Assembly (NCBI GenBank): GCA_010093745.1
Contig: MU006050.1
Span: 1-34,538, forward strand
DNA: 34,538 bases
From: Piedraia hortae CBS 480.64
Lineage: Eukaryota
Reading direction: 5' to 3'
Translations under genes and position numbers: made by a program
Part shown: positions 1,089 to 2,328 of the stretch, one piece after another
Numbering within the stretch: the first letter of the stretch is position 1
Layout: the number at the start of each line of letters is the position of its first letter
The notes under the pieces: model-generated
What the model was told of the DNA's origin: nothing
The model's database searches: none
Seen by the model: only the letters and a program-made list of their open reading frames with translations

Positions 1089-2328
1089 ATGGCTGTTACT
1101 TTTACTTGCTTATGGCAACCGGTGGCATGCCAGCGCTTGCCGTTGTTGTTCCGCAGCGCTGCCCGACGAGGGTTCTGCAGCGGCAATGGACTGCGGACTG
1201 ACTATGGCTTCATAGGGCTGGGCCAAATGGGTAAGCAAGCACCAAACAGAGTGGACAGAGAAGGAAATTGAACGTGACAGGTTTTCCCATGGCCGTCAAT
1301 CTCGGCCGTCATACGCCAGATGCCGACAAGTTGCACGTTTACGATGTCAACGAAAAGGCCCTCGACTCCATCTCTACAAAGGTTGGAGAGAAGCTGAGGG
1401 TCGAGGAGTCGGTACATGAAGTGGCTAAGAAGTCGGTAAGTTCAGACGTGCTTCCCGCTGCCCTGATGAGATCCATTTTCCTCTTTTATATGACCTAAGT
1501 TGGTGGATGCCTTCTGCATCTATTGCTCTGATTACAAAATTCTAGCCAATCCTCTGAATGCAGCTATGCCAGTTTCTTCCTGCTCTCCTGGATCCCTGCT
1601 GACGAGAGCAGGATGTCATCATCACGGCCCTTCCGGAACCGTCCCACGTCAAGAGCGTCTTTGAACAAATGCTTCACCCGCGGCTGCCTTCCAAGCAGCG
1701 GCTGTTTATCGACTGCAGCACCATAGACCCCATGACATCGCAGGAAGTGGCCAATGAGGTGGACAGCACGGGAAGCGGACGGTTCGTCGACGCGCCCATG
1801 TCGGGAGGCGTCGTTGGGGCGACGAACAAGACGTTGACGTTCATGATTGGGTCAGCGCCGGAGCTGGTGGAGCAGGCGACGGCGGTGCTAAGCATGATGG
1901 GCAAGCGCGTGGTACACCTTGGGCCGCCGACGAGCGGGCTCAAAGCCAAGCTGGCCAACAACTACCTTTTAGCGCTGAACAATATTGCCACAGCCGAAGC
2001 GCTGAACCTGGGTGTCCGGTGGGGGCTAGATGCAAAGAAGCTGTCTGAGATGATTAATACGGCGACAGGCAAATGCTGGCCCAGTGACGTCAACAATCCG
2101 GTGCCATCGGTCGATCCGCGAGCTCCAGCATCGCAGGACTACCGCGGCGGATTTGGAACAAAGCTGATGTTGAAGGATCTGACGCTGGCGCTCAAGGCGG
2201 CCGAAGAGGCAAATGTCGCGCCGCTGCTGGGCGGCCACGCAAAGGATATTTACACGGCTGTTGAGGCGACTGACGGGTGTCAGAACCGAGACTTTTCGGT
2301 CGTGTACAAGTATTTAGAGCTCAGGTAG
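1089..2328 (+). CDS. HIBADH: 3-hydroxyisobutyrate dehydrogenase, mitochondrial; exons 1089-1230, 1281-1435, 1612-2328
   Basis: Spliced product has YGFIGLGQMG-FPMAVNL (NAD-binding), DVIITALPEP, FIDCSTID, DAPMSGG, KLANNY and YRGGFG. Introns 1231-1280 (GTAAGC..CAG) and 1436-1611 (GTAAGT..GCTGAC..CAG) preserve the frame. Arg-rich N-terminus resembles a presequence. Confidence 0.93.
1457..1564 (+). ncRNA. Intronic box C/D snoRNA candidate
   Basis: Terminal stem GCTGC (1457-1461)/GCAGC (1560-1564); box C TGATGA 1464-1469; D' ATGA 1490-1493; internal hairpin GGTGGATGC/GCATCTATT; C' TGATTA 1529-1534; box D CTGA 1554-1557 preceded by AGCCAATCCT. Sits in a 176-nt intron, about three times the length of the other introns. 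Confidence 0.82.

Follow-up and report, generated by a model that had tools for sequence, protein, structure and literature searches.

An intronic box C/D snoRNA of Piedraia hortae that matches Neurospora Nc CD40, with a predicted guide to LSU rRNA

What occupies the second intron of a 3-hydroxyisobutyrate-dehydrogenase-type gene in Piedraia hortae CBS 480.64, to which family does it belong, and with which part of the ribosome would it pair? The gene lies near one end of the window, the whole 34,538-nt stretch of DNA analyzed here (contig MU006050.1), and a sequence-only reading of the window had singled out this intron as long and as the carrier of a box C/D snoRNA. The host gene is laid out as follows.

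1089..1230, + strand: host exon 1, from the ATG to the GQMG of the NAD-binding motif (basis: translation)
1231..1280, + strand: host intron 1, 50 nt, GT..AG (basis: gene model and the contig of run X2)
1281..1435, + strand: host exon 2 (basis: gene model and the contig of run X2)
1436..1611, + strand: host intron 2, the carrier of the snoRNA, 176 nt, GT..AG (skipped in the contig of run X2)
1612..2328, + strand: host exon 3, stop codon included (basis: Pfam)

Scanned alone, exon 3 matches NAD_binding_2 (E=1.4e-21) and NAD_binding_11 (E=1.1e-23) of Pfam, which are the domains of 3-hydroxyisobutyrate-dehydrogenase-type (HIBADH-family) enzymes. Splicing was assessed with contigs from two sequencing runs: X2, which is presumed to be RNA on the basis of an automatic label that is itself a guess, and X1, a DNA run that is possibly the source of the window DNA. 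The X2 contig contains the exon 1/exon 2 joint at 1229/1280 and omits exactly 50 and 176 nt, each stretch being bounded by GT..AG, and X1 is collinear with the window, both introns being retained. The claim of a long intron is upheld: at 176 nt, as compared with 50 nt for intron 1, intron 2 is removed in the transcript-like X2 contig. The run contigs leave the intron interior, 1470–1610, uncovered and have no bearing on expression either way. Downstream in intron 2, CTGAC at 1597–1601 is, by consensus, a branch-point-like site.

Inside intron 2, a box C/D snoRNA of 108 nt spans 1457–1564. It is composed of the following elements.

1457..1461, + strand: terminal stem, 5′ arm GCTGC, pairing with 1560–1564 (5 bp)
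1464..1469, + strand: box C, TGATGA, near the 5′ end (CTGATGA at 1463–1469)
1470..1489, + strand: region upstream of D′, a decayed D′ guide, containing ATCCATTTTC at 1471–1480
1490..1493, + strand: box D′ (D′-like), ATGA
1495..1504, + strand: conserved internal element CTAAGTTGG(T), complementary to LSU ACCAACUUAG (1495–1503 when the final T is left out)
1502..1524, + strand: internal hairpin of 9 bp (1502–1510 with 1516–1524) and a 5-nt loop, from folding and family covariation
1529..1534, + strand: box C′ (C′-like), TGATTA
1544..1553, + strand: D guide AGCCAATCCT, complementary to LSU AGGAUUGGCU, with A1549 facing the first U
1554..1557, + strand: box D, CTGA, near the 3′ end
1560..1564, + strand: terminal stem, 3′ arm GCAGC

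The sequence-only reading had described the full set of C/D elements in order, and each of them is present at the position assigned to it. Boxes C and D, the terminal stem, and a 10-nt guide adjoining box D, by which a box C/D snoRNA is recognized, are all found. The boxes plus the terminal stem alone are not beyond chance, with one site in the window having boxes and a stem of at least 5 bp and a mean of 0.78 such sites in 100 first-order Markov simulations. The site rises above chance because its D guide is anchored to LSU rRNA and because its boxes are conserved among homologues. It is a real snoRNA, and it was correctly spotted from the letters.

Homologues were collected by scanning metagenome contigs for CTAAGTTGG, followed by a gap of 25–55 nt and then AGCCAATCCTCTGA, and at least 113 homologous loci were obtained. 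Two loci broken off at box C were left out, and the listed rest gave 94 distinct sequences, or 95 with the window. Both searched elements are 100% identical in the listed loci by construction, because the pattern required both exactly; the independent check on their conservation is that of Neurospora only. The sequence-only reading had held that boxes of a genuine snoRNA should persist in orthologous introns, and three cores that did not belong to the pattern do so: GATGA of box C, TGA of D′, and TGAT of C′ are each invariant, 95/95 among the matches listed. The D′ box reads ATGA in 94/95 of the matches listed, its A being kept in at least 90%, and it lies 1 nt before the internal element in 81/95; C′ reads TGATT in 92/95. 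A box C variant, AAGATGA in place of TGATGA, is seen in five of the 95 listed members.

The internal hairpin covaries. In the alignment of the 95 listed sequences, 93.1% of the hairpin cells are paired, compared with 80.2% in shuffles and 61–83% in slid controls, counts that lean towards structure because the alignment was fitted to the model. Double-sided changes occupy 72 cells among the same 95 sequences, as compared with 15.2 in shuffles, and none of 500 shuffles scored as high. Folding of single sequences gives a mean z of −2.96 relative to mononucleotide shuffles, with z < −2 in 74 of the 95 listed. The terminal stem was also considered as a family feature and set aside as weak: at least 4 contiguous bp are formed in only 20/95 of the sequences listed, compared with 8.2% in mismatched controls. 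With a covariance model (R1), exactly one copy per source was recovered in 274 kb.

The host is conserved as well. An exon-3 homologue lies directly downstream on the same strand in 106/113 of the loci listed, and in 105 of those 106 it starts at residue 1–3, that is, at the same intron position. The distance from box D to the start of the exon is 59–88 nt in the listed HIBADH loci and 54 nt in the window, and the best host-protein matches in the listed loci are 43–72% identical to the window protein. The sequence-only reading had called a valine-catabolism gene an atypical host; because 106/113 of the listed loci share it, the HIBADH host is the rule for this family and not an oddity, and this intron is a conserved host across many filamentous fungi. 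Seven of the listed loci have no exon-3 match, and six of these end within 121 nt of the pattern match. The seventh, L044, has its snoRNA (2493–2601, − strand) in an intron belonging to a gene of the GrpE family (E=8.8e-42 for Pfam GrpE) rather than to a HIBADH gene. Another contig from the same metagenome, L093, carries a near-identical snoRNA in the usual HIBADH intron, and the L044 locus seems to represent a copy transferred to a second host.

To which described family does the RNA belong? The sequence-only reading had presented it as novel and could assign it to no named yeast snR family. The first part does not hold, for the RNA matches Nc CD40 of Neurospora crassa (GenBank EU780963), an intronic snoRNA of 107 nt (Liu 2009, PMC2780460), and the snoStrip family CD_40. 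As matched by eye in five conserved blocks against the Nc CD40 sequence of Additional file 1 (PMC2780460), the two RNAs share the same block order: box C, AUGA, CUAAGUUGG, hairpin, and UGAUUA, then AGCCAAUCCU-CUGA. In particular, CUAAGUUGG is found at 1495–1503 of the window and is complementary to 26S CCAACUUAG. A scan against LSU sequences gave a third 10-nt complement in the candidate, CTAAGTTGGT (1495–1504) against ACCAACTTAG, and this complement matches the published guide of Nc CD40 (Additional file 4, PMC2780460). The two RNAs, each intronic and of similar length (108 nt in the window, 107 nt in Neurospora), have an identical D guide and box D. The arms of the hairpin differ in sequence, with pairing and location kept. 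The main differences are the region between box C and D′, in which the two sequences are unrelated, and the spacing from D′ to the internal element, which is 1 nt in the window and 6 nt in Neurospora. Judged from these shared blocks, the window RNA is the predicted local ortholog of Nc CD40.

Table 1 of Liu 2009 (PMC2780460) gives Nc CD40 the mark “C, N”, for cDNA library and Northern, and the host gene of this RNA is not named in the available portions of the text and supplements of that paper. The one piece of evidence for a stable RNA is this Neurospora ortholog, cloned and Northern-positive, accumulation in P. hortae being presumed. A literature search for Nc CD40 returned relevant mentions only in Liu 2009 and Canzler 2018 (PMC5824354); in the available part of the latter, Nc CD40 is assigned to snoStrip family CD_40, which is described as “not detected in Eurotiomycetes”.

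The comparison with Rfam that the sequence-only reading had proposed gives no hit to a known family, the family having no Rfam model. Rfam 15 yields zero families at the gathering threshold over the whole window, five weak matches at E up to 10 on 1380–1660, none of them relevant, and, for six homologous loci searched at E up to 1, one unrelated match. A weak match of window 1487–1636 (− strand) to Afu_198 of A. fumigatus (15.3 bits, E=0.82, gathering 40) was judged to be noise.

The failure to fit a yeast snR family is, in turn, corroborated. Nc CD22 (yeast snR62, human U34) and Nc CD28 are methylation guides in the same LSU stretch, and their guides and targets differ from those of the window RNA. 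Identity with snR62/U34 was considered and rejected: the pairing given by Liu 2009 is to ACAAU*GUAGAUAAG, and in L001, the LSU contig used for coordinates, 49 nt separate the predicted U from the upstream U targeted by snR62/Nc CD22. The snR61/Nc CD38 guide targets a different sequence, and a link of snR61/U38 to the 5′ element after box C is likewise ruled out by the pairings in Liu 2009.

The rRNA sequences with which the guides were compared are eukaryotic LSU contigs that contaminate bacterial assemblies; they come from unknown eukaryotes and not from this organism. They were found with an 18-mer taken from the sequence-only reading, and their LSU nature was confirmed with Rfam. L001, L003, L004, L008, L009, and L031, all filed as bacterial genomes or MAGs, carry eukaryotic LSU, 5.8S, or SSU rDNA (Rfam 1725–2631 bits), which indicates contamination of those entries. 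L024 and L028 match the 18-mer with no rRNA hit, probably by chance. The LSU of L001 contains AGGATTGGCT, ACCAACTTAG, and GAAAATGGAT, and the 10-nt complements of the D guide and the internal element are at 2086 and 2232 of this contig.

Directly beside box D, all 10 bases of the D guide AGCCAATCCT pair with AGGAUUGGCU in these real eukaryotic LSU sequences, as the sequence-only reading had proposed. For a random 10-mer next to box D, the probability of matching the 2255-nt LSU part of L001 is 0.002. The duplex is only 10 bp long, is not extended in any homologue listed, and has a predicted energy of −15.6 kcal/mol, compared with −12.5 kcal/mol for the internal element. Counted upstream from box D, A1549 is the fifth base and lies opposite the first U of the target, so that the D+5 rule selects the first U of AGGAU*UGGCU as the predicted methylation site, again in agreement with the sequence-only reading. 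With U1888 taken as the snR62 site of yeast, this residue presumably corresponds to a yeast position of about U1937. By offset from Um1866 of Liu 2009, it would be about U1915 in N. crassa 26S numbering. No guide is listed for this site in Liu 2009 (PMC2780460), and a literature search for a methylation map of a filamentous fungus found none.

The two complementarities fall on opposite strands of one rRNA helix. According to the consensus structure of the LSU in Rfam, a small hairpin is closed by GGAUU, and GGCUCUAAG-GGUUG pairs with CAACC-AA-CUUAGAACU. The former stretch constitutes the 5′ strand of a long helix, and the 3′ strand lies beyond a variable insertion of ~140 nt. We take this helix to be helix 63 with expansion segment ES27. 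From the placement of GGAUU and GGCUCUAAG, the D guide takes in the 3′ arm of the small hairpin and reaches four bases into the long helix. On the opposite strand, CC-AA-CUUAG is the stretch covered by the internal element, and this target is ~146 nt downstream of the D-guide target in the rRNA sequence.

On these grounds, we consider it likely that the D guide of the RNA directs methylation at one uridine of the LSU and that base-pairing with the other strand of the neighboring helix assists it. The snoRNA would be released from intron 2 of the HIBADH gene after splicing, and the terminal C/D motif together with the internal C′/D′ one (ATGA and TGATTA, joined by the covarying hairpin) would assemble the usual snoRNP. 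The D guide would pair with LSU 5′-AGGAUUGGCU-3′, so that the fifth guide base would face the first U, the residue predicted to be 2′-O-methylated. CUAAGUUGG(U), between D′ and the hairpin, would pair with 5′-(A)CCAACUUAG-3′ about 146 nt downstream; the helix to which this stretch appears to contribute the 3′ strand has a 5′ strand that starts within the D-guide target. With its two targets on opposite strands, the snoRNA would hold both strands at the base of the helix and expansion segment. The internal element would thereby serve as extra base-pairing that aids the D guide and not as a second methylation guide. This element is preceded by the conserved AUGA and followed by the covarying stem, both of which argue against its being a canonical guide, there being no box 3′ of it.

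Extra base-pairing in snoRNAs has precedents. According to the available part of van Nues 2011 (PMC3116282), extra pairing can raise methylation up to five-fold, and most conserved extra-pairing regions are between D′ and C′. Similar to snR70 and other yeast and human snoRNAs with extra pairing, the window RNA has a conserved, probably non-guide element between D′ and C′ that is complementary to rRNA near the predicted site. In the cases of the available part of van Nues 2011, the pairing is “immediately upstream or downstream”; here, 146 nt of sequence separate the partner from the target, and the partner belongs to the other strand of the adjoining helix.

Three other readings of the RNA were weighed. 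One is that it methylates nothing and that its two pairings have a purely structural role, keeping the expansion-segment helix open or together at its base while the pre-60S particle folds. To our knowledge, neither the yeast nor the human map reports methylation of the predicted U, and this, along with the location of the two complementarities on opposite strands of one helix, is what a folding chaperone would lead one to expect. Chaperone snoRNAs are few, the D guide is in the exact canonical register beside a perfect CUGA box, and nothing in the data speaks against catalysis, so that we regard a purely chaperoning RNA as unlikely.

The published annotation of Nc CD40 leads to a different guide. 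In Liu 2009, only the internal element was annotated, and not the D guide: CUAAGUUGG would be a methylation guide acting through a strongly diverged D′ box immediately 3′ to it, with the A of CCAA*CUUAG (26S-Am2062) methylated, and AGCCAAUCCU would be accessory or functionless. The 11/0 match given in Table 1 and Additional file 4 of PMC2780460 agrees with this annotation, as does the conservation of the CUAAGUUGG element, and in the available part of van Nues 2011 (PMC3116282), divergent C′/D′ motifs can direct methylation. The alignment of the family speaks against it. The CCCA boxed as D′ is not a conserved box, because its bases covary as part of the stem, and the window reads GGAT in its place. 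The box that does have an invariant TGA, ATGA, is 5′ of the element and not 3′, and in 54/95 of the sequences listed it is preceded by an in-register guide of its own to a different A. In addition, according to the available part of Canzler 2018 (PMC5824354), in which CD40 is not named, false detection of D′ boxes underlay three of the Neurospora targets. We therefore think it improbable that the internal element is the methylation guide.

That the motif arose by chance or is an intronic splicing or regulatory element from which no stable RNA is made, as the near-chance rate of boxes plus stem in a window of this size and the lack of RNA-run coverage of the intron interior would allow, is very hard to credit given the cloning and Northern detection of the Neurospora ortholog, the invariant boxes and hairpin covariation among the 95 distinct homologues listed, and the L044 copy in a GrpE-family intron, which speaks against dependence of the function on the host gene.

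Methylation by the D guide with help from the internal element thus remains the preferred reading, and a broader proposal can be attached to it tentatively, with rather less confidence than the reading itself. CD40-family RNAs may be two-handed guides, in which the D guide directs a filamentous-ascomycete-specific Um, so far unannotated, at the foot of the expansion-segment helix, and the invariant element invades the opposite strand, clamping a segment of ~150 nt during folding. Am2062 would then be a misread accessory pairing, and the RNA would have been kept in one valine-catabolism intron.

As a find, the snoRNA is fairly ordinary, the family having already been described in Neurospora. 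What the analysis provides is a tidier annotation: an unannotated intronic snoRNA is named and linked to a published family that is absent from Rfam, and the 95 sequences are enough to seed an Rfam family. Three points appear modestly new and may be of use to snoRNA specialists: the predicted D-guide target at an LSU uridine, which is new relative to Liu 2009; the published “D′ guide” of Nc CD40, which on re-reading looks more like an accessory pairing; and what seems to be a long-conserved, stable host in the HIBADH intron. Of the sequence-only reading as a whole, the box C/D snoRNA, its D guide, and the D+5 uridine stand, whereas the novelty, the atypical host, and ATCCATTTTC do not, and the conserved CTAAGTTGG had been missed.

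The family varies in its pairing potential with rRNA in the region between box C and D′, and it is there that the sequence-only reading had placed its extra pairing element, ATCCATTTTC. The LSU motif that this element would pair with does exist, and only the TTTTCC core of the element recurs in the closest homologues listed, its ATCC part differing even there. An unanchored 10-mer complement to this LSU part arises in 17% of shuffles, and ATCCATTTTC was set aside as a conserved feature on account of this frequency and of its variation in the closest listed homologues. Its LSU match is probably due to chance, a species-specific role being the less probable alternative.

A different pairing is observed in the same region of other family members. 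In 54/95 of the sequences listed, the bases before ATGA form 9–12 contiguous in-register pairs with LSU GAUAGAACAA; these D′ guides are TTGTTCTATC-like and select the same A (26S-Am1859) as the D guide of Nc CD28. The D′ guide has decayed in 39/95 of those listed, including the window, in which region 1470–1489 forms 0 in-register pairs with GAUAGAACAA, and a Neurospora-like group. This split of the family points to redundant guides and lineage-specific loss.
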